Positions 16,081-32,115 of a DNA stretch of 64,000 nt are shown here, one piece after another; the first letter of the stretch is position 1, and the number at the start of each line of letters is the position of its first letter. The stretch covers positions 3,777 through 67,776 of IMG/VR virus record IMGVR_UViG_3300005675_000082; one strand, 5' to 3'. A program made the translations under genes and the position numbers. The stretch comes from a virus (taxonomy: Duplodnaviria; Caudoviricetes). The notes beneath the pieces were generated by a model. It was not told where the DNA came from. It saw nothing but the letters and a program-made list of their open reading frames with translations, and searched no databases.

Positions 16081-18909
16081 ATGGGCATTTTAAACCAGAT
16101 CGGGCAGTTTGTAGGGCAGGTGTTTAACAGAACTGCCGCCGCGCAGTATATGGTGGGGGCGGATGGCAGTATTGTCCCCCTGTCTCCCAGCGCGGGGGAA
16201 AAAGCCGCGTCCCGTCCAGCCTCCTCCTCCATGATGTTATTCCCGTCATGGCGCGATGGACAGCCGCAGTGGAACCTGCTGAATTTAGACGCCTACATCG
16301 AAGAAGGTTACAACCTCAATACACTCATCCACAGCGCGATTGCCTACAAGGGACGGGCATACATGTCGGCCCCACAGCGCGCGTTTGGTGAGTCGATGGA
16401 AAATCCTGTGCGGATGCTGCCCAATCACCCCCTGAGTAAACTGCTGGCGCGGCCTAACCCGTACCAGTCCACAGCGGAATACCAGCAGTTACGCATGACG
16501 TACCTGAATCTGGCGGGCAACGCCTATACCTTTTTGCAGCGCGATCGCACTGGGGCCTTTCCCAAAGCGCTGTGGCTGCTGCGTCCCGATTGGGTCTACA
16601 TCATCCCTGACGACGGGCACGGCATCAAGGGCTACCTGTACCGTCCCGACGGCTACACGACACAGGACGGGCTGCCCATCCTGCCAGAGGACATGATTCA
16701 CATCAAATTCCCCAACCCCGGCGACCCGCTAGGGGGCCTGGGCTACGGCCTGTCGCCGATGACACCGCTGGCACAGTCGGGCGATGTGGATAACGATGTC
16801 ACCCACTTTTTAAAGAAGTTTTTTGAAAACAAGGCGATGGTGGGCGGCGTGATTAAATACAACATGCCCATCGACGAGGCCACCGTTGGCCTCATCCGCA
16901 ACCGTTACAAGGAAGTCTACGGGGGCAGTGAAAACTGGGGCGACGTGCTGATTCTGGATCAGTCCGCTGAATACCAGCGTATCGCCATGAACTTTGAGGA
17001 AATGAAGTTTGATGCGCTGGACAAACGTAACGAGAGCCGCATCCTCATGCCCTTCGGTGTCCCCGGCATCCTCATTGAAACGCTCAGCGGCTTGGAAAAG
17101 AGTTCTTACGCCAACAAACGCGAGGCGCGGATCATGTTCTGGGAAGACACCATGCGTAGTGAAATGCGTCTGATGGAATCGGATGACCAGTATTACCTGA
17201 CGTACCCCGATGATGGCGCGTTCCCCATGCACGACCTGAGCGAAGTCCCCGCGCTGCAAAAGAACATTCCTGAACTGGTGAATGCGGCGCATAAGATGTG
17301 GAGCATGGGCACGCCGCGCGATGACGCGTACCGCACGGTGGGGTTAAACGTCCCGTCCACCGCAGATGGCGGCGTGGGGTATGTGCCGGGCAGTATGCTG
17401 CCGGTGGGCACGCCGCGCGCAGGGGTACAAACGCCAGACACAGCAGCGCAGGATGCACAGGATACGCTGGACGCACAGGCAGAACAGACCGCGATGGAAG
17501 ATGCGGCAACGGTGGACAATGAGGGGGCAAAAGCACGGCCCGATTCTGTTCGCAGCGTGAAAGCGGCGGAACAGGCGGGATACGTTTACCTCTCGCTGGC
17601 ACATGAGCCGCAGTTACTTGCCCTTCAGCAGTTGGCGAAAGCGGCTAATCCCGCGCTGGAACTCACACCGCCCCAACAGCTTCATATCACACTGGCGTAT
17701 GCGCCGGATGTGGATGAAACAAGCTTCGACACGGTTTTCCGCGCCTGTACGCCGGAAGATTTAAACCTTGTCGTCACGGGAACATCCTTTTCCACCTTTG
17801 AACCGGAACAGGGACAGCCGACGCCGTTGGTTCTGAATATCCAGTACGACGACACGCTGGCACAGTTCCAGCGCCGTGTCTGTGAGGCGTTACAGACGGC
17901 GGGCATTGCGGTGAGCGAATACACGTTAAAGTGGGTTCCCCACATCACACTGGGATACTATGCGGAAAAGGTGGCGCTGCCTGCCACCTCGGACACTGTA
18001 ACCCTGCGTCCATCTGCGGTCTGCTGGGCGCGTGAGGATTACAGGGTTGTCCATGAAACAGTGCTGCCCAACAACAAATCTGGTTATACCCATGAAGAAA
18101 AAACGCTCATCTGGAAGGCGCAGGATAACATCGCTCAATCTCACGAATCAGCATTCGCCAGCGAAGCGCGCAAACAGTTTGAAGCGGACAAACGCGCGAT
18201 ACTGGCGCTGGTGACGGATGCCAAAACCAAAGCGCTGGAACGTAAGGCCAGCATCGACTGGAAAGACCTCATTCCGCTGGTGGGTGCGTATCTGGCGACG
18301 GAAAGCATTCCGGCATGGCAGGATGGGTTTACGCCGCTGGTGGGTGCGGTGGCGCTGGATGTGGGCAATTACTGGGCGGGTCGTTTGGGGCGTGAGCTGG
18401 TGGTGGATACCGTGTTTCCGTCTGAGTGGTTAAGAACATACACGCTGGTGTTTGCAGACCCGATTTCACGCACGACAGGCGACGCGATACGCGCCATTCT
18501 GGAACAGGCGGCAGATGAAGGGTGGAGCATCCCGCAAATGCAAACGCGTATGGGGCTGGTGTTTGAGCAGTGGATGGCGGGAGGGGTATCCGCAGAAGAT
18601 TTTGACTTCCTGAGCCAGCGGATGCCGCCGTATCGGACTGAAAACATCGCACGCACAGAAACGACGAGGGCGGCATCTGCCAGCGCAGACAGAACCTACC
18701 GTCAGTGGGGGGTGGCAAGACGCGAATGGATTCCCACGAACGACGACCGCACGCGCGACAGCCACGCCGCCGCCGATGGGCAAATCAAACCTATGGACGA
18801 GCCTTTTATCATCGGCGGCTATCAAATGAACTACCCAGGCGACATGAGTTTAGGAGCGCCATTAAGTGAAGTCGCGGAATGCAGATGCACCATCGCGGCT
18901 ATCGCCTGA
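16081..18909 (+). CDS. Portal protein fused to a 2H phosphoesterase and a MuF (head morphogenesis) domain
   Basis: HK97-type portal (LLARPNPY, GNAY, GYGLSP); two HxT motifs (LHITL aa535, PHITL aa621); MuF C-terminus (IARTET, W...DDRTRDSH, PGD...CRC). Confidence 0.88.
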   Translation: MGILNQIGQFVGQVFNRTAAAQYMVGADGSIVPLSPSAGEKAASRPASSSMMLFPSWRDGQPQWNLLNLDAYIEEGYNLNTLIHSAIAYKGRAYMSAPQRAFGESMENPVRMLPNHPLSKLLARPNPYQSTAEYQQLRMTYLNLAGNAYTFLQRDRTGAFPKALWLLRPDWVYIIPDDGHGIKGYLYRPDGYTTQDGLPILPEDMIHIKFPNPGDPLGGLGYGLSPMTPLAQSGDVDNDVTHFLKKFFENKAMVGGVIKYNMPIDEATVGLIRNRYKEVYGGSENWGDVLILDQSAEYQRIAMNFEEMKFDALDKRNESRILMPFGVPGILIETLSGLEKSSYANKREARIMFWEDTMRSEMRLMESDDQYYLTYPDDGAFPMHDLSEVPALQKNIPELVNAAHKMWSMGTPRDDAYRTVGLNVPSTADGGVGYVPGSMLPVGTPRAGVQTPDTAAQDAQDTLDAQAEQTAMEDAATVDNEGAKARPDSVRSVKAAEQAGYVYLSLAHEPQLLALQQLAKAANPALELTPPQQLHITLAYAPDVDETSFDTVFRACTPEDLNLVVTGTSFSTFEPEQGQPTPLVLNIQYDDTLAQFQRRVCEALQTAGIAVSEYTLKWVPHITLGYYAEKVALPATSDTVTLRPSAVCWAREDYRVVHETVLPNNKSGYTHEEKTLIWKAQDNIAQSHESAFASEARKQFEADKRAILALVTDAKTKALERKASIDWKDLIPLVGAYLATESIPAWQDGFTPLVGAVALDVGNYWAGRLGRELVVDTVFPSEWLRTYTLVFADPISRTTGDAIRAILEQAADEGWSIPQMQTRMGLVFEQWMAGGVSAEDFDFLSQRMPPYRTENIARTETTRAASASADRTYRQWGVARREWIPTNDDRTRDSHAAADGQIKPMDEPFIIGGYQMNYPGDMSLGAPLSEVAECRCTIAAIA

Positions 18910-21266: not shown

Positions 21267-21295
21267 TGCACATTTGTTCTGTTATATGCTACAAT
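21267..21295 (+). promoter_or_regulatory. Head-operon promoter with LexA-like box
   Basis: TGCACATTTGTTCT at 21267-21280; extended -10 TGCTACAAT. Confidence 0.7.
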
Positions 21296-21342
21296 TCCAA
21301 GAATTAACGAAACGTTGATTATTAAGATGCGAGGCTTAACAC

Positions 21343-21753
21343 ATGGCTCCAGTAGCACTCGGCACATCCATCACCCCCGGCGCGAACGCTGTTTTTGACA
21401 GCGGGCATATCGCAGGGGAAGCGCTGACCAACGGCAATCTGGTCTACCGTGACCCTGCCGACAGCAACAAACTCAAGAAGGCAGACCAGACATCGGCCAC
21501 CAAGGCGCAGGTGTTTGGCGTCGTTATCGGCACGGTGGCCAGCGGGTCGCAGGTGCTGGTACAGACGAAGGGCACGGTGACAGGCACGGCAACGCTGGTT
21601 CAGGGCGAGCACTACGGCATCTCTGGCACAGCGGGCAGCATTGAGCCTGCGGCAGATGAAGGCGCGGGTGACTTCTGGACGTATGTGGGATACGCGCCCA
21701 CCACCACGTCGCTGGAACTGGCGATCCACCACGCAGCGGTGGCGCGTGCCTGA
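21343..21753 (+). CDS. Capsid cement/decoration-like protein
   Basis: AGEALTNGNLVY...KAD...VFGV...V.T.G.V pattern; position in the head module. Confidence 0.6.
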   Translation: MAPVALGTSITPGANAVFDSGHIAGEALTNGNLVYRDPADSNKLKKADQTSATKAQVFGVVIGTVASGSQVLVQTKGTVTGTATLVQGEHYGISGTAGSIEPAADEGAGDFWTYVGYAPTTTSLELAIHHAAVARA

Positions 21754-21944
21754 TGATGGACGTGCGCTGTCCGAAGTGTAACAAAAAGCTCGGTGAGAGC
21801 GATGGGCGCGGCACAGTGGAAATCCTGTGTCCCAACTGCAAACATATCGTGCGCAGTTATCCATCGGTCGCCACTGAGATTGTTACGAGCGATGAACGGC
21901 TGAACACGCGGCGCTTCGAGCCACAGGAAATCAAACGCCGCTAA
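21753..21944 (+). CDS. com: Mu Com-like zinc-finger RNA-binding regulator
   Basis: DVRCPKCNKKL...VEILCPNCK; followed by Com-type target hairpins. Confidence 0.8.
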   Translation: MMDVRCPKCNKKLGESDGRGTVEILCPNCKHIVRSYPSVATEIVTSDERLNTRRFEPQEIKRR

Positions 21945-21952
21945 CCGCAGTT

Positions 21953-22024
21953 GAAGCGCCCTGAGCGCAACTTGCAGAACACACCGAATGCCCTGAGCAT
22001 CCTTTGCTCCGGGTGTTTTTGTTT
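21953..22024 (+). promoter_or_regulatory. Two Com-type RNA hairpins overlapping a terminator-like hairpin
   Basis: GAAGCGCCCTGAGCGC (21953) and GAATGCCCTGAGCATCC (21986); alternative GAGCA-TCCTT-TGCTC stem followed by TGTTTTTGTTT. Confidence 0.7.
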
Positions 22025-22033
22025 GGAGAGGGT

Positions 22034-23173
22034 ATGAAAAAACAATTCGAGCGTTTAGATAAAGCCTTTCACGCCCACATCACAAAAGCCGATGCCGGGG
22101 TTGTGGAAGCCATTGTGAACGTCTTTGGCATTCTGGACTATGGCAACGACATCGTTCAGAAGGGCGCGTTTGCCAAGACCATCTCCGAACGCTGGTCAAA
22201 AATCCTTGTGCTTGACCAGCACAACACCGACAGCACGTTAAACGCCATCGCCAAGGTGCTGGCCATTCGCGAAATGGAAGCCACTGAACTGCCGATGGAA
22301 ATCACCGCTGAGTACCCCGAAGCCACTGGCGGGTTGTGGGTGCGGATGCAGTTTATGGTGGACGATGAAAAAAGCAACGCCATCTTTAACCGCATCAAGG
22401 CGGGTGTCATCGGTGAATACTCCATCGGCTTTGACATCATTCGTCAGCACTACGAAAAGATTGAATGGCGCGGGCAGAAGGTGAATGCCCGTTTTATTGA
22501 CGAAATTCGCCTTTTTGAGTGCTCACCAGTCCTGTGGGGAATGAATCAGGCAACGGCCACTGTCAGCGCCAAAGAGTACATGCCGGATGGCAGCGCAACG
22601 CAGCGGCTTGGGGATTATCTGGCGGCGTGCCTGTTTAAAGCGGGCAACTACACCAATGATGATTTCCTTGCGGTGGGACTTACCAACAACGATGAACACG
22701 CGGCGCTGTTGAGCCTGCTTAAAGTCAGCATCGGCGCATTTCTGGACGCCATTCCAGAAGACCTTGCCCTGCGTCCAATGGACATGGGCTTTGGGATGCT
22801 GTGGTGGGCGGCGGCGCTGACGGAAGAAAGTAAGGCGCTGGTCAAAGAGGGGCGCGTGATCAGCGCGTCCAACGCCGAACGCTTACGGGTGGCCTACGAA
22901 GCGCTGACCGATGTGCTGATGGCCGCCGGACTCATCGAACATCCCGACGATGAAGATACAGAAGACTACGCAGGCGAAGGCGCGGATAACGCCAAAGCCA
23001 GCGACGAACCAAGTGAACAATCAGGGCGTGACGATGCCCTGTTGGACAATCCAGCACAACCCCCCGCGTTGGTCGAGCCGCAGGCGAAACAAGTTTCGCA
23101 AGCACTCACCGCAAACGAGCGGCAGCGGTTACTGGCGCAAATCAATCTTGAACTTGAAACCTTAGGAGGATAG
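22034..23173 (+). CDS. HK97-family prohead maturation protease with C-terminal extension
   Basis: DYGNDIVQKGAF, LDQH, YSIGF, LFECSPVLWGMN; KEGRVISASN motif. Confidence 0.9.
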   Translation: MKKQFERLDKAFHAHITKADAGVVEAIVNVFGILDYGNDIVQKGAFAKTISERWSKILVLDQHNTDSTLNAIAKVLAIREMEATELPMEITAEYPEATGGLWVRMQFMVDDEKSNAIFNRIKAGVIGEYSIGFDIIRQHYEKIEWRGQKVNARFIDEIRLFECSPVLWGMNQATATVSAKEYMPDGSATQRLGDYLAACLFKAGNYTNDDFLAVGLTNNDEHAALLSLLKVSIGAFLDAIPEDLALRPMDMGFGMLWWAAALTEESKALVKEGRVISASNAERLRVAYEALTDVLMAAGLIEHPDDEDTEDYAGEGADNAKASDEPSEQSGRDDALLDNPAQPPALVEPQAKQVSQALTANERQRLLAQINLELETLGG

Positions 23174-23175
23174 GC

Positions 23176-24453
23176 ATGGTTGCCTTACGTAATGATGTAG
23201 ACCTCCTGACAGGGCGTGCGGTGCAGCTCTACAAGGACGCGGGCGAGATCATCCGTAATCTGGATGCGTCAGCGGACGACGTGGAAAAAGCCAACCGTAT
23301 GATGGAAGAAGCCAAGGGCCTGAAGGATCGGGCCGCGAAGCTTGCTGAAATCAATGCGGCGGGCGGTGAACTGCAAAACGACACGCACCTGCGGGGAGAA
23401 CAGCAGAAGGAAGAAGGCTTTAAGTCGTGGGGTGAATTCACCTCCGCTCTGGCTCAGGAAGTACTGAGCAAGGGCAAGGTGCGCGACCCGCGTCTGAAGG
23501 TCTTCGAAGACCGCGATTTCTCAAATCGCAAGGACATGACCGGTGCGACAGGCGGCGCGGGTGGGTACATCATCCAGACCGAACATCTGGCGCAGCTCAT
23601 GGCCGTAGCCGCCCCGATGTCCGCCATTCGCGAGGGCGCAACAATTGTGAACATGGGTTCGCGTCAGGTCGATATGCCTGTCGTGGATCAGGCGACGGTT
23701 CCCGCCAGCGGCGTCCCCACCTTCTTCGGTGGTGTGCGCGTCTACTGGCAGCAGGAAGCCAGCGCCATTACAACCAGCGATGCAGGCTTTAAGCAGGCGG
23801 CGCTGGTGGCCAGCGAACTGGTCGGCTTGACCTACGTCGGCAATTCGCTGCTTCAGGATGCGTCGGTGTCACTGGCGTCATTCCTGGGCGGGCGTATGGG
23901 TTTCCCCGGCGCGATTGCGTGGGCGGAAGACTACGCCTTCATCATGGGCGATGGTGCAGGCAAACCGCTGGGGATCGTGAACGCCCCTTGCACCAAGACC
24001 GTCACCCGTACCACCACTGTCACCGTCAAGTACGATGACCTGGTGGGCATGGAAACGGCCTTCTGGGGCAACGATGGCGTGTGGGTCATCAACAACTCGC
24101 TCAAGAGCGTGCTGATGCTGATGAACGGCCCATCGGGGAACGCAAGTTACCTGTGGGGCAACACCGCGCAGGGCGTGCCCAACACGCTGCTGGGGCGTCC
24201 CGTCATCTGGACGGACAAACAGCCTGCGGTGGGCACCAAGGGCGATATCCTGCTGGTGGATCGCAGCATGTACGTCATCGGCGACCGTCAGGCCACTTCC
24301 GTCGAGAGCGACCCCTCGGTGGGTTTTGGCTCGAACAAGACGGCATTCCGTGTCATTCACCGCGTAGACGGGCAGCCGTGGCTTTCTGGCGTCATCACGC
24401 TGGCAGGCGACAGCAGCACCGTGTCGCCGTTCGTCGCGCTATCGACGCTCTAA
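23176..24453 (+). CDS. Major capsid protein (HK97 fold) with N-terminal scaffold domain
   Basis: Coiled-coil N-terminus, K|DMTGATGGAGGY, FIMGDGAGKPLGI, LLGRPV, F...TAFRVIHRVDG. Confidence 0.92.
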   Translation: MVALRNDVDLLTGRAVQLYKDAGEIIRNLDASADDVEKANRMMEEAKGLKDRAAKLAEINAAGGELQNDTHLRGEQQKEEGFKSWGEFTSALAQEVLSKGKVRDPRLKVFEDRDFSNRKDMTGATGGAGGYIIQTEHLAQLMAVAAPMSAIREGATIVNMGSRQVDMPVVDQATVPASGVPTFFGGVRVYWQQEASAITTSDAGFKQAALVASELVGLTYVGNSLLQDASVSLASFLGGRMGFPGAIAWAEDYAFIMGDGAGKPLGIVNAPCTKTVTRTTTVTVKYDDLVGMETAFWGNDGVWVINNSLKSVLMLMNGPSGNASYLWGNTAQGVPNTLLGRPVIWTDKQPAVGTKGDILLVDRSMYVIGDRQATSVESDPSVGFGSNKTAFRVIHRVDGQPWLSGVITLAGDSSTVSPFVALSTL

Positions 24454-24465
24454 GGATGGTGTGAA

Positions 24466-24918
24466 ATGGCAGTGAAGACTCAGGCACTAACGGAACAGAT
24501 TGCACTGGTCGGGCGCGTCTCGCCACAGCTCATCGACAACAACACGGGCGATACCGCATGGGTGGACATCAGCAAGTTCCGCCGTGTGGCGTTCCTGCTG
24601 CTGTTGGGCGCAACCGATATCACGGTGGACTTTAAGCTGCGTTCGGCAACGGACAGCAGCGGCACCAGCGCAGCCGACATCAGCGGTTACGCGATTACAC
24701 AATTCTCCGCAACCGACGACAACAAGGAAGCGTGGATTGAAATCGACGAAAACAAGATGGCGGCCCTGGGGCGTCGGTACGTCTCGGCGCGCGTGACGGT
24801 GGGCGATGGCACGCTGGGCGGCAACGTCGCAGTGGCAGCGCTGGCTGGCGTGGCGCGTTACGAACCCGCTTCGGACAATGATCTGGCGACAGTCGCTCAG
24901 ATCATCCGCAACGTCTGA
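24466..24918 (+). CDS. Putative capsid decoration/head protein
   Basis: Directly after the MCP; beta-rich WVDISKF...RYV..R pattern. Confidence 0.55.
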   Translation: MAVKTQALTEQIALVGRVSPQLIDNNTGDTAWVDISKFRRVAFLLLLGATDITVDFKLRSATDSSGTSAADISGYAITQFSATDDNKEAWIEIDENKMAALGRRYVSARVTVGDGTLGGNVAVAALAGVARYEPASDNDLATVAQIIRNV

Positions 24919-24960
24919 CGGGCATTGTTAGGCATGGGAGGGGTGTCCTCTCTGGGACAC

Positions 24961-24982
24961 CCTTTCACCCAGAGGCGAAACC
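24961..24982. promoter_or_regulatory. 22-bp palindrome copy 4 (degenerate)
   Basis: CCTTTCACCCAGAGGCGAAACC before the ATG at 24983, after the hairpin GGGTGTCC-TCTCTG-GGACACCC. Confidence 0.5.
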
Positions 24983-25654
24983 ATGAGCGATACGACCTAC
25001 GCCACCATCGAAGAACTGCGTTCGCAGTTTGGCAGTCTCAGCAGCGATAAGGATGATTTTATCCAGCGCTGTTTGAATGCCGCTGCGGAAGCGCTGGATA
25101 TGATGTGCAACTGGAACGTACCGCTGGAAGCCGCCGCCACCGCCAGCGCGCGCATGTACGCAGGCACAGGGCTAGCGTATGTCATGACTGACCCGTTTGT
25201 GTCGCTCTCGACGGTGGAAATTAAAGAAAGTCCCACCGATGCGGCGTGGACAACCGTGACAGCAGGCACGTATCTGCCCTTTCGCGGTGACCCGCGTTTC
25301 CCCGACTTTAACAAAACGCCATACAACGGCGTGGCGCTGCTGGGCAGCGGACGCACCTCCTTCCCCAGCGGCAAACTGGAATCGGACAGCGGGACGGGAT
25401 TGGCACAGGCGGTATTGGGTTATGGTCTGCCTACGGTGCGCATTACGGCGCGTTTTGGCTATGCCGCAAGCCTGCCGCCAAACGCCAAACAGGCGGTGCT
25501 GACACAGGCGACACGCTGGGTGAAACGCGGCGAAGCAGCCTGGGCGGACACCATCTCCAAGGGCGACATGGGGCAGTTACAGTTCCGCAAGGCACTCGAC
25601 CCGGATGTGGCGGCGATGATCGTACAGGCGCGGCTGGTGAAACCAACGATTTAG
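24983..25654 (+). CDS. Head-tail adaptor/connector
   Basis: YATIEEL...AA...D..C...VRITARFGY...P...KQA pattern; position. Confidence 0.75.
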   Translation: MSDTTYATIEELRSQFGSLSSDKDDFIQRCLNAAAEALDMMCNWNVPLEAAATASARMYAGTGLAYVMTDPFVSLSTVEIKESPTDAAWTTVTAGTYLPFRGDPRFPDFNKTPYNGVALLGSGRTSFPSGKLESDSGTGLAQAVLGYGLPTVRITARFGYAASLPPNAKQAVLTQATRWVKRGEAAWADTISKGDMGQLQFRKALDPDVAAMIVQARLVKPTI

Positions 25655-25663
25655 GAGCGATGG

Positions 25664-25987
25664 ATGTTTATTCAACTTACCAACACACACGGCGAAGACA
25701 TTCTGGTCAACTCGGATCATATCCTTTGGGTTGAACCGATAGGCGGCGACCGCCCTTACCGCAAACTGCATCTGAGCAGTGGCGAACTGGCGGTGCGTCA
25801 AACGGCTGAAGAAATTGTCGCGCTGTGTCAGGTGGCGGCCATCAGTATTGAACCCGCTGAAATCGTCATCGGGCCGAGTGAAATCAAGGCTGATGTGTCG
25901 TTTGTGCAGGATGCGGCAGACAGCCCGGCGCAGACGGTAGCCGATGCTTTGCAGGCCGAACGGCGCGGGGGACGGGTGCGTAAATAA
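25664..25987 (+). CDS. FlbD-like small protein
   Basis: MFIQLT...ILVNSDHI..VE...L.VRQT.EEI. Confidence 0.55.
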   Translation: MFIQLTNTHGEDILVNSDHILWVEPIGGDRPYRKLHLSSGELAVRQTAEEIVALCQVAAISIEPAEIVIGPSEIKADVSFVQDAADSPAQTVADALQAERRGGRVRK

Positions 25988-26448
25988 TGGTCGCCAGCGT
26001 CAGGGAGATACGGGGCTTACGCGAGACTCAGCGCAAACTGGAACAGACCATTGCCGATTTGGAGGGCGATGCGTTTCTGGAAGGCTTGCGCAGCGCGACG
26101 CTGCTGGTACAGCGGGACGCTAAACGCCTTGCGCCTGTGGACACCGGACGCTATCGCGCCTCTATTACGCCCGAAATTCGCCAGCGCGGAACCACCATTC
26201 AGGGGATTGTGGGCACGAACGTGATTTACGCCCCGCCCATTGAAACGGGCAGTCGCCCACACCGTCCGCCTTTAAGCGCTTTACAAGTATGGGCACGGCG
26301 GCATGGCATGAACGCCTTTGTGCTTCAGCGTGCGATTGGCAGACGCGGCACGCGGGCGCATCGTGTGTTTGCGCGGGCGCTGGAACAGAACCGTGATCGG
26401 ATTGTCGCGCTGGTCGGGGATAACGTGGCAAGGATTGTCAACCAATGA
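25987..26448 (+). CDS. HK97 gp10-like neck protein
   Basis: APVDTGRYRASI...VGTNVIYAP.IETG. Confidence 0.85.
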   Translation: MVASVREIRGLRETQRKLEQTIADLEGDAFLEGLRSATLLVQRDAKRLAPVDTGRYRASITPEIRQRGTTIQGIVGTNVIYAPPIETGSRPHRPPLSALQVWARRHGMNAFVLQRAIGRRGTRAHRVFARALEQNRDRIVALVGDNVARIVNQ

Positions 26449-26891
26449 CGATGACCATCACGCAGCTTACCACCGCAGTACGCGATACGTTAGGCGCAGC
26501 AGCGTCCATCGTGCAGGCACAGGCCGGACGCGAAATCAGCGAGTCCGTTCCCGATACGCCCATGATGCAGGTGTATCTGCAAAAGTATCAGGGCAGCACC
26601 AATAGCAACACAGACCGCACGACCTTTCGCGGCGGCAAACGGCACAAGCTGTACGCGGTGAATGTGGATGTGTATGTCCACACCCGAAGCACGCTGGGCG
26701 ACGAAATGGCGCTGCTCGAAACGGTGCTGGATGAACTGATTGACATTCTGGAAGCGCAGGATACACAGCCCTATTTCGGGCTGGCAGTGATCAGCGCGTT
26801 TAAGGTCAATGACATTGAGCGCGCCATCATTGAAAACGCAAATCAGGAGTTTGCGGGATACCGCATTCCTATCGACTTTCATGTGATTTAG
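26445..26891 (+). CDS. Tail terminator/completion protein
   Basis: Position and size before the tail tube gene. Confidence 0.6.
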   Translation: MTMTITQLTTAVRDTLGAAASIVQAQAGREISESVPDTPMMQVYLQKYQGSTNSNTDRTTFRGGKRHKLYAVNVDVYVHTRSTLGDEMALLETVLDELIDILEAQDTQPYFGLAVISAFKVNDIERAIIENANQEFAGYRIPIDFHVI

Positions 26892-26903
26892 TGAGGTGTA
26901 GAC

Positions 26904-27347
26904 ATGGCAGATACAACTACCGCTTTTACCGCCTGTGATGTCGTTGTCGAACTGGATGACGCGGGCGGTACACTGCGCGATATTTCGGGCAGTTCCAGCA
27001 AGGTCGAAGCCAACTTCGACAACAACATTGGCGAATTCCGCACGCTGGGCGGGTCGCAGTGGAAAAACCGCCTTCAGTGCGGTAAGGATGCTTCGTTTAA
27101 GGTGACGGGGATCGCCTCCACAGGCACCAACGAAATCCGCGACATCATCCTGGCATGGTTCTTTTCCGGTTCGGGACTGCGCACGTTCCGCTTTTCTGAA
27201 CCCGCTGGCACGGCAGGCTCCAAACGGTTTGCCGCCGAATGCGTGCTGAAGAGTTTTAAATTCTCAGATGACGCGTCAGATTCGAACCCCGTGGCCTATG
27301 AAATTGAGTTGCAGCCGTCAGGCGCTGTCACTATGACCGGTCTCTAG
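26904..27347 (+). CDS. Major tail tube protein
   Basis: 147 aa with tail-tube-like pattern, followed by chaperone and tape measure genes. Confidence 0.8.
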   Translation: MADTTTAFTACDVVVELDDAGGTLRDISGSSSKVEANFDNNIGEFRTLGGSQWKNRLQCGKDASFKVTGIASTGTNEIRDIILAWFFSGSGLRTFRFSEPAGTAGSKRFAAECVLKSFKFSDDASDSNPVAYEIELQPSGAVTMTGL

Positions 27348-27351
27348 TAAA

Positions 27352-27368
27352 AGGGGCAAATTGCCCCT
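27352..27368. terminator. Hairpin between the convergent tail tube and nuclease genes
   Basis: AGGGGCAA-A-TTGCCCCT. Confidence 0.55.
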
Positions 27369-27376
27369 CTTATTTA

Positions 27377-28699
27377 CTACGCTTTCCAGTCGTCTAAAAT
27401 CACTTCAACATAAACCTCCCCGCCAATGATACGCGCGATTGCAGCTTCCAATTGTTCAGCGGTTGGGGTCATGGCGTCTGATTTCACATGCACAATTCGC
27501 CACCCATCATCCATAATGGATTGAATGCGTTCTCTGTCTGTATCAAGTTGATCCTTGTGCCAATACCACCCATCATATTCAATGCCTATGGCAATATCAT
27601 TTCGGGAAATAGCAATATCCAGTGAATACTTCCCAACGGGAATATTTAATGCTCCCCCAAGCATTTCACTAATTGCGCGCTGAGGTTTTGAAACCTTTAC
27701 CCCATTCACCATATCAAAACAATAAGGACACCCTACACCAACTCGCATCTGTACGTAAGTTGCTTCCCAAAGATGCCCCTTTGGACATTCAAATGTGGTC
27801 TTTGTTTTTACGCCGCGAACCTCCGGCCCTAACCATTTAAACCCACGACTTTCAGCGATCCACTGAAAGTCAGCGGGGGTGCGCATCACTGGTTCTGAAT
27901 ATTTGCCAGTTTTCCGAATTTCAGCACTACACACTGGACAATTTTGGCCCCGATAGACATTGCTATAGGTTGCGTAAAAACGATGCCCTTCTGAACATTC
28001 CCACCATGTTTTTTCTGAGGTTCGGGCTAACGTTTCTCCCATCCATCGAAACCCCCGACGCAGCGCAACAGCATGATAATGAGCCTCCGTTAACGCCTTC
28101 CCCGCGATTGTTCGTTTTCGCCCGCAAGCTGGACATCCTGACCCCATTTTTACACTTGTATATTGAGCTTCCCACTGGTGTCCACAGGTATTGCATTGCC
28201 ATTTTGTGTGCTCGTGTGCGCTAATCGCTTTTCCCCCAAGCCATGTGTACCCGCGAGACTCCGCTAAAGCAATATACTCTTCAGCTTTAATACGATGAAA
28301 TTCGGCAACTCTTTTTTGGGCACATTGATGGCAACCTGCTCCATTGAGAACAGTGTTGTATGCTGTCTCCCATTCGTACCCGCAGGCCTTACAGCGCCAA
28401 AGCGTTTTTATCTTTGTGTTACCAGAGTATTCTCCTATCCACTCCATGTTGCGTTCTTTGGCGAGCTTCTCATAAGCCTCCGGTTGAACACGGCGCGGTT
28501 GGGGAATGTTCTGTCGGTAACAAACAGGACAGCCCGTTCCTCTTGAGACGTTATTGTAGGTTGCTTGCCAAACATGATTCAGTGGACATTCCCAACTTGT
28601 AGGGTCTTGAGAGTGCAGTGGGAGTTTATCCCCACGCCATAAAAACCCCCGACTCAAGGCTAATGTTTTATAATCCTCTGCTGATTTGCGACGCGGCAT
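27377..28699 (-). CDS. Multi-zinc-ribbon endonuclease with C-terminal Vsr/PD-(D/E)xK-like domain (putative homing endonuclease)
   Basis: Five W/F-x-C-x2/3-[GN]H/Y-x-W-x-A-x-Y...G-x-x-C-P-x-C repeats; YSLDIA...IGIEYDGWYWH; antisense and AT-richer than its flanks. Confidence 0.8.
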   Translation of the reverse strand: MPRRKSAEDYKTLALSRGFLWRGDKLPLHSQDPTSWECPLNHVWQATYNNVSRGTGCPVCYRQNIPQPRRVQPEAYEKLAKERNMEWIGEYSGNTKIKTLWRCKACGYEWETAYNTVLNGAGCHQCAQKRVAEFHRIKAEEYIALAESRGYTWLGGKAISAHEHTKWQCNTCGHQWEAQYTSVKMGSGCPACGRKRTIAGKALTEAHYHAVALRRGFRWMGETLARTSEKTWWECSEGHRFYATYSNVYRGQNCPVCSAEIRKTGKYSEPVMRTPADFQWIAESRGFKWLGPEVRGVKTKTTFECPKGHLWEATYVQMRVGVGCPYCFDMVNGVKVSKPQRAISEMLGGALNIPVGKYSLDIAISRNDIAIGIEYDGWYWHKDQLDTDRERIQSIMDDGWRIVHVKSDAMTPTAEQLEAAIARIIGGEVYVEVILDDWKA

Positions 28700-28815
28700 G
28701 ATATAATCCTTTTCGACTGTCTGAGCAAGATTGTCGCCACGCCTATGGTGTCTGTCGCACTATAGGCGTTCCTTTTAGACCCCCCTATTGTACCTCATTT
28801 AGCCTCAAATCTCAA
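28700..28815 (-). promoter_or_regulatory. Promoter and two-hairpin structured leader of the nuclease gene
   Basis: TTGAGA-N17-TACAAT; CGCCTATAGTG/CACCATAGGCG stem; AAGGATTATATC-ATG. Confidence 0.65.
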
Positions 28816-28822
28816 CTTAGAT

Positions 28823-28852
28823 TTGCCATTCTGCGAACACTTGTGCTACAAT
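28823..28852 (+). promoter_or_regulatory. Tail-chaperone promoter with LexA-like box
   Basis: TTGCCA-N18-TACAAT; CGAACACTTGTGCT at 28834-28847. Confidence 0.7.
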
Positions 28853-28885
28853 ACTTAAGACTTCGTAAAGAACGATAAGGATTAA

Positions 28886-29224
28886 ATGCACATGCCTCAA
28901 CGCAATCGTGAAAAGACGGTGAAATTTCCACTTCAGGGCGACGATGCCTTCATTAAGGTGCGGATGCCGACGCTGAAGGAAATGCAGTTCCTGCAAACAC
29001 TGCAAACCGACTACGAAGAGACAGCGGATCAGGAACAGGCCGCGCGTAAGTTTCTGGCAGAATTTTTGCTGGAATGGAATCTGGTGGACGATTACGGCGT
29101 GGAACTGGCACAGCCGCACAGCAATCCCAACATCTTTGAACAACTGACGAACGAGGAAGTGAAGTTCATCTACAAGGCGCTGGCTGGACAGGATGAGCCG
29201 ACCAAGGCCGCGAAAAAAAAATAG
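28886..29224 (+). CDS. Tail assembly chaperone (G)
   Basis: Between tail tube and TMP; WNLVDD..G motif; ends in an A9 run. Confidence 0.8.
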   Translation: MHMPQRNREKTVKFPLQGDDAFIKVRMPTLKEMQFLQTLQTDYEETADQEQAARKFLAEFLLEWNLVDDYGVELAQPHSNPNIFEQLTNEEVKFIYKALAGQDEPTKAAKKK

Positions 29225-29466
29225 CGGATGATTATTTTGCAGCGCTGCTCATTGGCAAAACGTTTGAGGATACACCGTGGCAACTGACAGAGCTTTTCCT
29301 CTGCGAACGTTTCCACAAACTGCCCAGCGAATTGCAGAATGAGGACAGCGAAACGATCCAGTTTATGCTGGAACTGATGAACGTGCGCGCAAAGGTTGAG
29401 AACTTTAAGGCCAAACCCGCCACAAAAGCAGCGGGCGGCAAGGGGACAACGCTGGGGAGCAAGTAA
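29221..29466 (+). CDS. Tail chaperone -1 frameshift extension (GT-like)
   Basis: Open -1 frame from ATA at 29221 (IADDYF...LCERFHKLPSEL...) with no start of its own; slippery GCG AAA AAA AAA TAG. Confidence 0.75.
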   Translation: MADDYFAALLIGKTFEDTPWQLTELFLCERFHKLPSELQNEDSETIQFMLELMNVRAKVENFKAKPATKAAGGKGTTLGSK

Positions 29467-29492
29467 CGCTCCCTTTTTTGTTTTTGTGACCT

Positions 29493-29511
29493 AGAACATT
29501 TGTGTTATAAT
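29493..29511 (+). promoter_or_regulatory. TMP promoter with LexA-like box
   Basis: AGAACATTTGTGTT at 29493-29506 overlapping TATAAT at 29506. Confidence 0.6.
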
Positions 29512-29525
29512 TGTTTTCAGCGTAT

Positions 29526-29600
29526 GAACGCCTAGAGCGTCAACGGTTTATTAATGCAATCATGAGCGCCGCGAGTGCCTTTACTCGCGGCGTTTTTGTT
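29526..29600 (+). promoter_or_regulatory. Com-type hairpin and terminator-like hairpin in the TMP leader
   Basis: GAACGCCTAGAGCGTC; CGCCGCGAGT-GCCTTT-ACTCGCGGCG-TTTTTGTTT. Confidence 0.7.
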
Positions 29601-29613
29601 TGGGGCAGGTGCC

Positions 29614-32115
29614 ATGGCCAACGTGCTGGAAATCATCATCCAAGCGGACAATCAGGCGTCAGGCGTCCTCAGCACGGTGCTGGGGAACGTCGAAAGTCTG
29701 GGCGGTAGCGTCGCCCGGACTGGCATACAGATGGGCCTTGTTGCCGCGCCGTTTGTGACAGCACTGACCACTGCTACCTACGCTGCGGTTGACTTCGACA
29801 AAACCATGACGAACACCGCGGCGGTGTTGGGACAAACGCGCGAAGAAACAGCAGCACTTTCACAAGAAATCCTAGACATGGGGGCAACCTCCATTGTTGG
29901 GCCGCAAGCCCTGAATGAAGCCTTTTACGATGTGGTTGGCGGGGTAACGGATGCTGCCTCTCGTATGGACATCCTCGAAACATCCATGCACGTCGCCCAG
30001 GCGGGAGCTGCCGATATGGGCGCAACTACATCCGCAATGATTTCGGTGATGAATAGCTATAGCTTCAGTGCGGAACAAGCGGCATTTGCCGGGGATGTGA
30101 TGACGCGCGCTGTCGGGATGGGCGTCGGTTCAATGGAAGAACTGGCAGGCGTGATGCCGATGGTCGCAGGCACAATGAATGCGATGGGCATTGGTTTCGA
30201 TGAAGGCGCAGCACAACTGTCGTACATCACAACCAAAGGCTATAGCTGGAGTCAAGCCGGGACGATGATGAACGCCATGATGGGCGCGCTGATGAGTCCT
30301 ACCGCTGACCTTGCCGATTTAATCCATTCACTTGGCTACGAAAGTGGTCAGGCGATGGTCGATCAATATGGATTAGCAGGCGCATATCAAGTCCTCGCTG
30401 AAGCAAACGGCGGCAGCGTAGCAGGGATTATTCAGAATCAGGAGGCTTTGCGTGGTGCTCTCGCCCTCACGGCAGATGGTTTTACCGAATACGCTGACAC
30501 CTTCATTGGGGGCATTGAAGGCGCAACAGCGGCGGCAGAGGAAATTCAACTTTCATCTCCAGCAGCACAAATAGCACAGCTTCAAAACGCTATGGGGGCG
30601 CTGTCCATTGAAGTCGGCACGGCGCTGCTGCCCGCGATTAACGACATTGTGCAGGGCGTGCGTCCCCTCATCATTGGCTTTACGCAGTGGTTACGCGCCA
30701 ACCCGCAGGTCGTGTCTACGGTGATTGCGGTTGTGGGCGCGGTGGCAGGCTTGGGCACGGCGCTGGTGGGCATTGGCGGCGTGATTAGCGGCGTGGCGGG
30801 GGTGTTTGGCGCGCTGCTCAATCCTGTGACGTGGATTATTGGCGCGATTGGGCTGCTCGGCACGGCGTTTGCGACCAACTTCATGGGCATTCGCGATGCG
30901 GTGGAACCTGTGATTACGGGGATCACCACAGCGGTTCAAAACTTTTTCAATTTTCTCAGCGGGGGCAGTGAACCGCTTTCCGCTTTAAGCGCGGCTATTG
31001 GGTTAGCCTTCGGCCCGGAAGTGGGCAGCGGGGTTGCCAACTTTGTTCAAGGCATTGTGACGGGTATTGGCGGGGTCGTTTCGTTCATCACAGGAACGGT
31101 GCTCCCCGCTTTAAGCCAACTCGTCTCATGGTTCATCACCGATGGCCTGCCTCTCGCTGTGAACTTCGTGACGGGCGTCGTTGTGCCTGCCGTGCAGGGG
31201 TTCATCACCACGCTCGGCAACATCTGGGCAGTCGTCGGCCCCGTGCTGTTTTCGCTCATCGACTGGTTCATCACCACAGGACTGCCAGCGGCGGTGAACT
31301 TCGTGCAGACGGTAGTCGTGCCTGCCGTCGAAGGGTTCATCGCCACGCTCGTTCGCGTGTGGAACGATGTTTCGCCCTTCCTTGTGAGTTTGTTCGACTG
31401 GTTTATCAATACCGGACTACCCGCGATTTCGAGTTTCATCACAGACACGGTTGTCCCTATCGTGCAGGACTTTATCAGCTTCCTGAGTGACCTCTGGTTA
31501 GCGGTACAACCGCACTTGGAAGAACTCTACAACTGGTTCGTAGTCGATGCGCTTCCGGCCATTCAGGAATTTATCGAAGGGCCAGTCACCACCGCCATTG
31601 AGGGGATTACAACGTTAATCTCCGGCATATGGGACGCTGTGCGCCCCGCGCTGGAAGGGTTTTACAACTTCTTTATCGACAACATCGGCACGATTGTGGA
31701 TGTTGTCATTACGCCGCTCAAAAACGCATTCGATGAGGTGCTAAACATCGGCGGCGATGTACTGGAATTTATCGGTGATGCCGCTTCCCAATTTGGTGAT
31801 TTTGTGTCCGGCGTGTTCGGCGGCGGGTCGAATGTAACAGCACAAGGATTGCCATCGCGCGACTCTGGTGGCATGGGCGTAGCAGGACAAGCCTACTACA
31901 TCGGCACAGGCGCACAGCCGGAATTGTTTGTGCCGCAGACCGATGGCACGTTCCTCACCCCCGCACAGTACGGAGCAGGGGCAGGCGGCGGGGGCGGCAT
32001 GACGATTAACGGGCTGACGATTAACGCCAACAGTTACGCCGAAGGGCAGGCGGCAGCAGACGGGTTCCAGACCCGCATGAGCCAGCTTGAAGAAGAACGA
32101 CGCAGGAGAGGATAA
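29614..32115 (+). CDS. Tape measure protein (TP901-like core)
   Basis: DFDKTM.N..AVLG; amphipathic W/F repeats with ~44-aa period; GELFVP-like C-terminus. Confidence 0.92.
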   Translation: MANVLEIIIQADNQASGVLSTVLGNVESLGGSVARTGIQMGLVAAPFVTALTTATYAAVDFDKTMTNTAAVLGQTREETAALSQEILDMGATSIVGPQALNEAFYDVVGGVTDAASRMDILETSMHVAQAGAADMGATTSAMISVMNSYSFSAEQAAFAGDVMTRAVGMGVGSMEELAGVMPMVAGTMNAMGIGFDEGAAQLSYITTKGYSWSQAGTMMNAMMGALMSPTADLADLIHSLGYESGQAMVDQYGLAGAYQVLAEANGGSVAGIIQNQEALRGALALTADGFTEYADTFIGGIEGATAAAEEIQLSSPAAQIAQLQNAMGALSIEVGTALLPAINDIVQGVRPLIIGFTQWLRANPQVVSTVIAVVGAVAGLGTALVGIGGVISGVAGVFGALLNPVTWIIGAIGLLGTAFATNFMGIRDAVEPVITGITTAVQNFFNFLSGGSEPLSALSAAIGLAFGPEVGSGVANFVQGIVTGIGGVVSFITGTVLPALSQLVSWFITDGLPLAVNFVTGVVVPAVQGFITTLGNIWAVVGPVLFSLIDWFITTGLPAAVNFVQTVVVPAVEGFIATLVRVWNDVSPFLVSLFDWFINTGLPAISSFITDTVVPIVQDFISFLSDLWLAVQPHLEELYNWFVVDALPAIQEFIEGPVTTAIEGITTLISGIWDAVRPALEGFYNFFIDNIGTIVDVVITPLKNAFDEVLNIGGDVLEFIGDAASQFGDFVSGVFGGGSNVTAQGLPSRDSGGMGVAGQAYYIGTGAQPELFVPQTDGTFLTPAQYGAGAGGGGGMTINGLTINANSYAEGQAAADGFQTRMSQLEEERRRRG

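Follow-up and report, generated by a model that had tools for sequence, protein, structure and literature searches.

Com-type RNA hairpins at leader terminators before the capsid and tape-measure genes of a tailed phage, and a possible antiterminator role for its Com-family protein

Background

What does a Com-family protein control when the genes that follow it build the virion? For about 35 years work on Com has treated it as a translational activator dedicated to a single DNA-modification gene, and its occurrence directly upstream of the prohead protease and major capsid genes of a tailed phage raises the question of what it acts on there, and by what route. The phage is represented by the 67.8-kb IMG/VR virus record IMGVR_UViG_3300005675_000082 (rated 98% complete), of which bases 3777-67776, a stretch of 64,000 nucleotides (nt) hereafter called the window, are the subject of this analysis. 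A sequence-only reading of the window had pointed to matching RNA sites in the leaders of the head and tape-measure genes and had proposed that Com serves there as a post-transcriptional antiterminator or translation switch. With moderate confidence, and from sequence, we read Com of this phage as a putative RNA-binding antiterminator for two late transcription units, acting in the manner of BglG on its ribonucleic antiterminator (RAT) hairpin. Direct support comes from the family of the protein, the match of the RNA motifs, hairpins that cannot form together with the terminators, and an arrangement conserved in relatives.

The target of Mu Com provides the reference for the sites described here. 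Systematic evolution of ligands by exponential enrichment (SELEX), electrophoretic mobility shift assays (EMSA) and selective 2'-hydroxyl acylation analysed by primer extension (SHAPE) established that Mu Com recognises the motif 5'-CC(N)2-3GAG-3' when it lies in a hairpin loop with a closing C-G pair, that a hairpin is preferred over a duplex, and that the bipartite SELEX consensus is NGAGNNCC(N)2-3GAGNNCCNN, the native operator being the 19-mer GAAUGCCUGCGAGCAUCCC (PMC6483171). We located this 19-mer in the Mu genome (L282:1375-1393), where it is directly followed by a stem that holds the mom GUG start codon; the Mu Com target as given in the sequence-only reading proved correct against both the paper and the genome.

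Results

The product of com (P0001, Table 1) aligns with Mu Com, taken from the Mu genome record, at 47% identity over residues 1-33 (BLASTP, E 3e-9) with all four cysteines (6, 9, 26 and 29) in register, and it matches PHROG 6417 'translational regulator' (5e-7) and PHROG 13819 'gpCom' (2e-6). Its close homologues number only three, P0002 (98% identical), P0003 (68%) and P0004 (73%); the orthologues P0003 and P0004 pass the 22.9-bit cut-off of PF10122, with 23.4 and 27.8 bits. These matches place the predicted protein in the Com family (Pfam PF10122, Zn_ribbon_Com) as a divergent member, and the earlier description of a Com-type zinc-finger gene is thereby upheld by alignment and PHROG matches. 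Pfam returned no CAT or PRD domain in P0001, a sequence search of the PDB yielded no solved Com-like chain, and tblastn of Com against the phage GenBank collection gave no match.

Four Com-type hairpins, S1 to S4, lie in two leaders of the window, and all four carry CC(N)2-3GAG in a loop closed by C-G. S1 starts 9 nt and S2 42 nt after the com stop codon. Both arms of S2 are identical to those of the Mu mom operator, its loop being one base shorter, and S4 is the only match to GAGNNCC(N)2-3GAGNNCC on either strand of the 64 kb, with 0.16 expected per shuffled window. The com open reading frame (ORF), S1, S2 and S3 had been quoted in the sequence-only reading and all lie where it placed them; S4, the promoter upstream of S3 and the conservation in relatives were absent from it.

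The two leaders share a common plan. Each has a Com hairpin that stands free (S1 or S3) and, 31-38 nt after it, a weak one (S2 or S4) that shares the 5' arm of an intrinsic terminator. In both leaders, as already noted from the sequence, a G+C-rich hairpin with a UCCUU (head) or CCUU (tape-measure) loop leads into TTTTTGTTTGG, the same tract in each, and then into the Shine-Dalgarno sequence and the start codon (ATG at 22034 and 29614). RNAfold pairs 21986-21999 with 22005-22018 in the head leader, which puts S2 within the terminator 5' arm except for its last three bases (22000-22002), which sit in the terminator loop; S4 lies within the corresponding arm of the tape-measure terminator, its last base excepted. 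Neither S2 nor S4 can therefore coexist with its strong terminator, and each terminator stops just before the ribosome site. The earlier claim of mutually exclusive hairpins at 21986-22013 thus holds for S2; in the tape-measure leader the competitor of the terminator is S4, not S3. Only one terminator follows each pair of sites, and that terminator itself contains a site.

Adjacent stems leave the Shine-Dalgarno sequence and the ATG unpaired in five of five leaders, at 6-12 nt beyond the U-tract. A stem of the Mu type, containing the start codon or Shine-Dalgarno sequence next to the Com hairpin, is absent from these five, and no conserved pairing to the ribosome site was found in the leaders. 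In the head leader the U-tract lies too close to the Shine-Dalgarno sequence GGAGAGGG for a promoter to fit in, and the tape-measure terminator likewise leaves no promoter space before its gene; transcription of the protease, capsid and tape-measure genes would therefore depend on read-through alone. The predicted tape-measure promoter lies directly 3' of the terminator of the tail-chaperone unit and probably starts its transcript near 29518-29519, placing S3 at about +8. No Rfam family matches either leader. The leaders of terS (~14060), lysis (~36485) and chaperone (28852-28886) genes have neither a Com site nor a leader terminator, and the chaperone G/GT unit is thus without the Com switch.

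A block, GAACAYYTGTGYTAYAMT, is common to the chaperone and tape-measure promoters (28835-28852 and 29494-29511) and is kept at both places in the relative G001 (L137 15816-15835 and about 16455-16475). It is operator-like, resembling a LexA box (GAAC-N4-GT), and overlaps the extended -10 element; if it is an operator, both units may be repressor-controlled as well.

U-tract terminators whose 5' arm is a Com hairpin number two in the window, and 300 dinucleotide shuffles yielded none. Looser definitions are not enriched: loosely defined Com-like hairpins number 17 against 11.9 +/- 3.7 expected, GCCYWGAGC occurs four times against 2.3 expected, which is not significant alone, and GAANGCCNNGAGCNTC matches S2 and S3 only (2 against 0.36 expected). 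The significance therefore lies in the combination and not in the short motif. GAG/CTC is depleted throughout the window (1072 occurrences where dinucleotide shuffles predict about 1590; z about -17), so that the shuffle expectations are conservative; CCNNGGG and GAGC are likewise depleted, with restriction avoidance or codon usage as possible causes. We considered the depletion of CCNNGAG (56 against 104 expected) as avoidance of Com sites and rejected this, as it mostly reflects the general loss of GAG/CTC.

Relatives with usable DNA are G001 (38 kb) and G002 (4.45 kb), the clade also including a 2.3-kb contig that carries P0002. Both keep the order com, S1, S2 with terminator, and protease gene, and their terminator stems are perfect, of 13 bp in G002 and 12 bp in G001 (-23.7 and -19.3 kcal/mol for the folded 48-nt head-terminator segments). 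Spacers have diverged while the sites and the terminator pairing are kept: the S1 homologues are GAGCGC-CAUGA-GCGC in G002 and GAAGCGC-CCUUGA-GCGC in G001, with diverged flanks. The tape-measure leader of G001 is whole, with chaperone terminator, promoter, S3, AT-rich spacer, S4 in the terminator, U-tract and ATG, and its promoter block reads GAACATTCGTGCTATAAT at the place of GAACATTTGTGTTATAAT in the window. Its S3 homologue, GAAUGC-CCUGA-GCAUC, differs by a compensatory change (U-A in G001, C-G in the window). Its S4 homologue, GAGCGCC-GUU-GAGUGCC, is the sole bipartite match in L278 and L137 (~23 kb of the 38-kb contig); the S4 stem GCGC/GUGC is kept as the loop goes from 5 nt in the window to 6 nt in G001, and in the G001 terminator the S4 arm is kept and the 3' arm altered to match.

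In 14 Com hairpins compared from the window, G001, G002, Mu and Mu-type loci, three elements never vary: the GA flanking the stem on its 5' side, the C-G pair that closes the loop, and C...GA within the loop. G-C or G-U stands at the second pair, U-A, C-G, G-C or U-G at the third, and A-U or G-C at the fourth, with pairing preserved throughout. Covariation among com-carrying relatives, which had been proposed as a check, is thus seen as compensatory stem changes.

The clade is rare across the collections searched. A protease query of viral contigs had no match and a capsid alignment search of the same contigs recovered G001 only; a Com alignment found only distant Firmicutes-type zinc ribbons without the motif in metagenome contigs, and nothing in genome contigs. 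Pattern scans of viral contigs for the S2 core and S4 gave mostly chance matches among the matches listed. We also rejected as relatives the 15 matches to GAATGCCCTGAG...CTCAGGGCAT in genome contigs, which are ordinary terminators without com.

The S2-core scan did recover classical Mu-type loci (L046, L057, L059, L072, L074, L093 and L123; L079 and L118). At L046 (5838-6877) a PF10122 Com gene (1.5e-18) overlaps a C5 cytosine methylase gene. In classical com loci GAAUGC-CCUGA-GCAUC, identical to S2, lies 25 nt before the methylase ATG without a U-tract terminator; loci of the L046 type have a second hairpin upstream, GAAGGC-CCCGA-GCCUCC, in tandem with the S2-identical one. At other Com-like loci (L150, L153 and L157) the hairpins contain the Shine-Dalgarno sequence.

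More distant Com-like genes on unrelated viral contigs (L154, L138, L143/L144, L140-146) are followed by CC(N)2-3GAG overlapping or abutting an intrinsic terminator (L154 9283-9340; L138 10286-10345; L144 1580-1650; L140 10112-10185), with head scaffold, capsid/major head or terminase genes downstream. The terminator-coupled form thus extends beyond this phage; only the clade of G001 and the window showed a cis leader paired with one in trans. Firmicutes-type Com-like zinc-ribbon genes at L134 (1500-1760) and L136 (330-470) precede a long conserved structured leader that ends in a terminator, with the pattern GTCGTACCG.GCAA.GGGTC.ATGGC...GCCAT...CACCAAATGGCCGGACACTTTGAAT.

The late cluster around com is of siphovirus type (Table 1), and the phage has no close relatives among named phages: a DNA query with 21300-24500 found no match in the phage GenBank collection, and capsid matches there are at most 38% identical. 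The long ORF at 16081-18909 combines portal (PF04860), 2H phosphoesterase (LigT/Acb1 type) and Mu F-like domains, and small unknown ORFs separate it from orf136. The orf136 product had no Pfam match and a weak match to PHROG 4368; its orthologue immediately precedes com in G001, where an element similar to the predicted promoter of the window, ...ATATGCTAAACT, lies upstream. The head switch is followed first by the protease/scaffold and major capsid genes.

A homing-endonuclease-like gene (27377-28699, minus strand) encoding 440 amino acids separates the major tail gene from the chaperones, where G001 has only about 150 nt; its product combines treble-clef zinc-finger repeats (DUF4379) with a CapR domain, matches REase_MTES_1575 weakly, and also matches the HNH endonucleases of PHROG 559/681. 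The chaperone gene ends just 3' of a run of nine A (29210-29224), and the -1 frame is open to 29466 (29200-29466), which is the usual G/GT programmed frameshift.

Table 1. Genes, predicted promoters, terminators and Com-type hairpins of the late region (window coordinates)
Feature	Position	Strand	Description
Portal-2H phosphoesterase-MuF fusion	16081-18909	+	Single 942-amino-acid ORF
Predicted sigma-70-type promoter, orf136-com unit	21267-21295	+	TGCACA-17-TACAAT, upstream TG; consensus scan, prediction only
orf136	21343-21753	+	From ORF list; stop overlaps com start (TGATG)
com	21753-21944	+	63-amino-acid Com-family C4 zinc-ribbon protein (P0001); CxxC-16-CxxC
S1	21953-21968	+	Free-standing Com-type hairpin GAAGCGC-CCUGA-GCGC, -6.0 kcal/mol
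S2	21986-22002	+	Com-type hairpin GAAUGC-CCUGA-GCAUCC, -2.1 kcal/mol alone
Head-leader intrinsic terminator	21986-22026	+	-17.5 kcal/mol; loop UCCUU; U-tract TTTTTGTTTGG
Prohead protease/scaffold gene	22034-23173	+	Pfam Peptidase_S78, 7.9e-14
Major capsid protein gene	23176-24453	+	Pfam Phage_capsid, 1.3e-43
Connector genes, then major tail protein	Major tail 26904-27347
Tail chaperones G/GT	28886-29224		To 29466 through -1 frameshift
Tail-chaperone G/GT unit terminator	29454-29474	+	Equivalent hairpin at same place in G001
Predicted tape-measure promoter	29484-29511	+	TTGTGA-16-TATAAT with TG, within conserved block GAACATTTGTGTTATAAT
S3	29526-29541	+	Free-standing Com-type hairpin GAACGC-CUAGA-GCGUC, -4.3 kcal/mol
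S4	29564-29579	+	Com-type hairpin GAGCGC-CGCGA-GUGCC, -3.6 kcal/mol; exact bipartite Mu Com SELEX match
Tape-measure-leader intrinsic terminator	29564-29603	+	14 bp, -24 kcal/mol; loop CCUU; U-tract TTTTTGTTTGG
Tape-measure protein gene	29614-32115	+	Pfam PhageMin_Tail, 8.5e-19; first gene after second switch

Discussion

Under the proposed antitermination, transcripts from the promoter at about 21267 would encode orf136 and Com and stop by default at the head-leader terminator, and those from the promoter at 29484 would halt about 80 nt downstream at the terminator of the tape-measure leader. In each nascent leader S1 or S3 would form first, then the weak S2 or S4 that shares the terminator 5' arm; accumulated Com would bind and hold these small hairpins, and the terminator helix would be blocked until polymerase clears the U-tract. 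Polymerase would then read on from the head leader to the protease, capsid, connector and major-tail genes, and Com acting in trans would likewise release transcription of the tape-measure and distal-tail genes. As com itself precedes the first terminator and shares its unit, the circuit would be self-reinforcing: short orf136-com transcripts would build up first, and Com would afterwards act in cis on the capsid unit and in trans on the tape-measure unit, opening both. We infer the binding of Com to these RNAs, termination at the hairpins, read-through and the timing.

This supports, on computational grounds, the earlier claim of one Com-type protein with matching operators in the head and tape-measure leaders that acts on terminator-like hairpins. 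Of its two suggested modes we favour antitermination over a translation switch, because the hairpins are intrinsic terminators, their U-tracts being conserved, and cover neither the Shine-Dalgarno sequence nor the start codon; the term 'post-transcriptional' does not apply, as the action would take place during transcription. Head and tail assembly may be synchronised, as had been suggested, with the caveat that the chaperone G/GT unit has no such switch.

In the class of BglG/SacY/LicT and RAT, as also with HutP and ANTAR, a protein stabilises a weak hairpin that overlaps the 5' arm of a stronger terminator, in a leader close behind a promoter. S2 and S4 likewise overlap the terminator 5' arm in a leader. 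The proteins differ, with CAT-PRD, HutP or ANTAR folds there and a C4 zinc ribbon here, and so does the proposed signal, which would be the accumulation of the protein itself in place of sugar or amino-acid sensing. In our analysis the best-supported reading is that Com here would work like the BglG/RAT class without being a member of it.

The likeness to Mu com/mom extends from the 62-63-amino-acid protein with zinc-ribbon cysteines C6, C9, C26 and C29 and a variable tail to a gene that immediately precedes its RNA target, a short target hairpin with CC(N)2-3GAG and, in S2, the same arms, and a competing second hairpin immediately after the Com hairpin. In Mu, however, the competing hairpin covers the mom GUG and control is translational, whereas here it is a U-tract terminator that leaves the ribosome site free; the target in Mu is a DNA-modification gene and here core virion genes; and here the sites come as tandem pairs, with a second operator pair in trans behind its own promoter.

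Com-like genes also precede other cargo, as in FluMu HI1522.1/hin1523 (PMC3299994) and before llpA bacteriocins of Pseudomonas (PMC6240691), where their role has been described as unexplored (PMC6240691; PMC3299994). Those loci and the com-methyltransferase loci (L046, L057 and L059) resemble the present one in having a Com-family gene and then one or two Com hairpins, but they differ in that a single accessory gene lies immediately downstream, the sites are inside or at the end of com, and there is neither a U-tract terminator nor a second leader elsewhere in the genome.

The sites also admit other explanations. Com could act as in Mu, remodelling the leader to free the protease and tape-measure ribosome sites, with the U-tract hairpins as the translation-inhibition structure. 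This is the sole activity shown for the Com family (PMC6483171), the Com hairpin lies immediately 5' of the second hairpin as in Mu, and hairpins that include the Shine-Dalgarno sequence do occur at L150, L153 and L157. We nevertheless judge it unlikely, because the ribosome sites are not occluded: in all five leaders a conserved U-tract follows the stem of the second hairpin and both the Shine-Dalgarno sequence and the ATG are left unpaired, the leaders showed no conserved pairing with the ribosome site, and transcription attenuators typically have the layout seen here, with a 14-bp terminator within ~80 nt of a promoter. A different possibility is processive antitermination, in which Com bound at S1 or S3 stays with the polymerase and the likeness between S2 or S4 and a Com site is of secondary importance. 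The comparison is with lambda N on nut boxB and Tat of human immunodeficiency virus (HIV) on the trans-activation response (TAR) hairpin, small phage or viral proteins that act on a promoter-proximal hairpin to cause read-through of downstream stops. Those systems are processive and modify the polymerase, whereas here the binding site belongs to the terminator and polymerase contact is unneeded, structure competition being enough to explain S2 and S4. Moreover, S4 is an exact bipartite match that is kept in G001 while the terminator 3' arm changes, S2 has both arms of the Mu operator, and no boxA-like element turned up, although no search aimed at boxA was made. We know of no polymerase-binding surface of Com, which also counts against a processive mechanism. 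S3 at about +8 of the predicted transcript, much as boxB and TAR lie near the transcript start, and a free-standing site upstream of the terminator in each leader are what such a mechanism would account for, and the Com paper itself points out that TAR carries CC(N)2-3GAG and resembles the Com site (PMC6483171); we hold it quite improbable.

The terminators might instead be constitutive and leaky, setting transcript ratios and insulating operons, with the Com sites serving autoregulation, stabilisation of mRNA 3' ends or titration of Com. The head terminator of the window has an internal mismatch and may leak, and the terminated RNA of about 80 nt from P(29484) would carry two Com sites. Against this, the perfect 13- and 12-bp stems of the relatives lie directly before capsid modules, so that the major capsid gene would stand behind a strong constitutive stop, and a Com motif inside the terminator arm, in both leaders and in two genomes, is left unexplained; there is little to recommend this account. 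Finally, ordinary terminators and short hairpins could look like Com sites by chance. Loosely defined Com-like hairpins are indeed common (17 against 12 expected), and terminators with the GAATGCCCTGAG arm exist without com in bacterial genomes. Yet four sites in two leaders with the com gene adjoining, an arrangement in the terminator arm found in 0/300 shuffles, a bipartite consensus matched once, and sites kept in G001 and G002 with compensatory changes make coincidence very hard to credit.

Several points weigh against Com-dependent antitermination itself. The stability of the terminators exceeds that of the Com hairpins by 13-20 kcal/mol, and Com would have to be a co-transcriptional kinetic trap, a mode of action for which the family is not known. 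To our knowledge Mu Com is known solely as a translational activator, and no paper linking Com to antitermination or termination was found in the literature. P0001 falls below the PF10122 gathering threshold, and that family is absent from the best 25 of 50 Pfam families matching it (E up to 10). The proposal does not explain the free-standing S1 and S3 hairpins, GAATGCCCTGAG-arm terminators occur without com in unrelated bacteria so that the arm alone is not diagnostic, and with only two close relatives with usable DNA there are few independent covariation events.

Conclusions

The Com-RNA pair is of a known kind, and the locus suggests that what is new is its coupling to terminators before core virion genes. 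On a wider reading, about which we are evenly divided, Com-family zinc ribbons would form a widespread class of phage late-gene antiterminators in which one operator, GA-NNGC-C(N)2-3GA-GYNN, is coupled to two types of output, being tied to a translation-inhibition stem in Mu and the methylase cassettes and to an intrinsic terminator in this phage and in several lineages unrelated to it, much as riboswitches have expression platforms of a translational and a transcriptional type; in this phage one Com would control both the capsid unit, in cis, and the tape-measure unit, in trans, as a self-reinforcing late-gene switch. What distinguishes the present case is that the operator arms are those of the biochemically characterised Mu site, which makes the hypothesis directly testable, and the reagents and assays for Mu Com (EMSA, SHAPE, SELEX variants) may transfer if Mu Com or P0001 binds the sites. 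A 63-amino-acid protein with about 40 nt of RNA would, if the reading is true, be usable as a protein-controlled terminator switch in engineered circuits. For the phages themselves it would mean that the Com-RNA pair doubles as a transcription antiterminator for core virion genes, adding a new family of antiterminator proteins and a new route by which tailed phages time their late genes.

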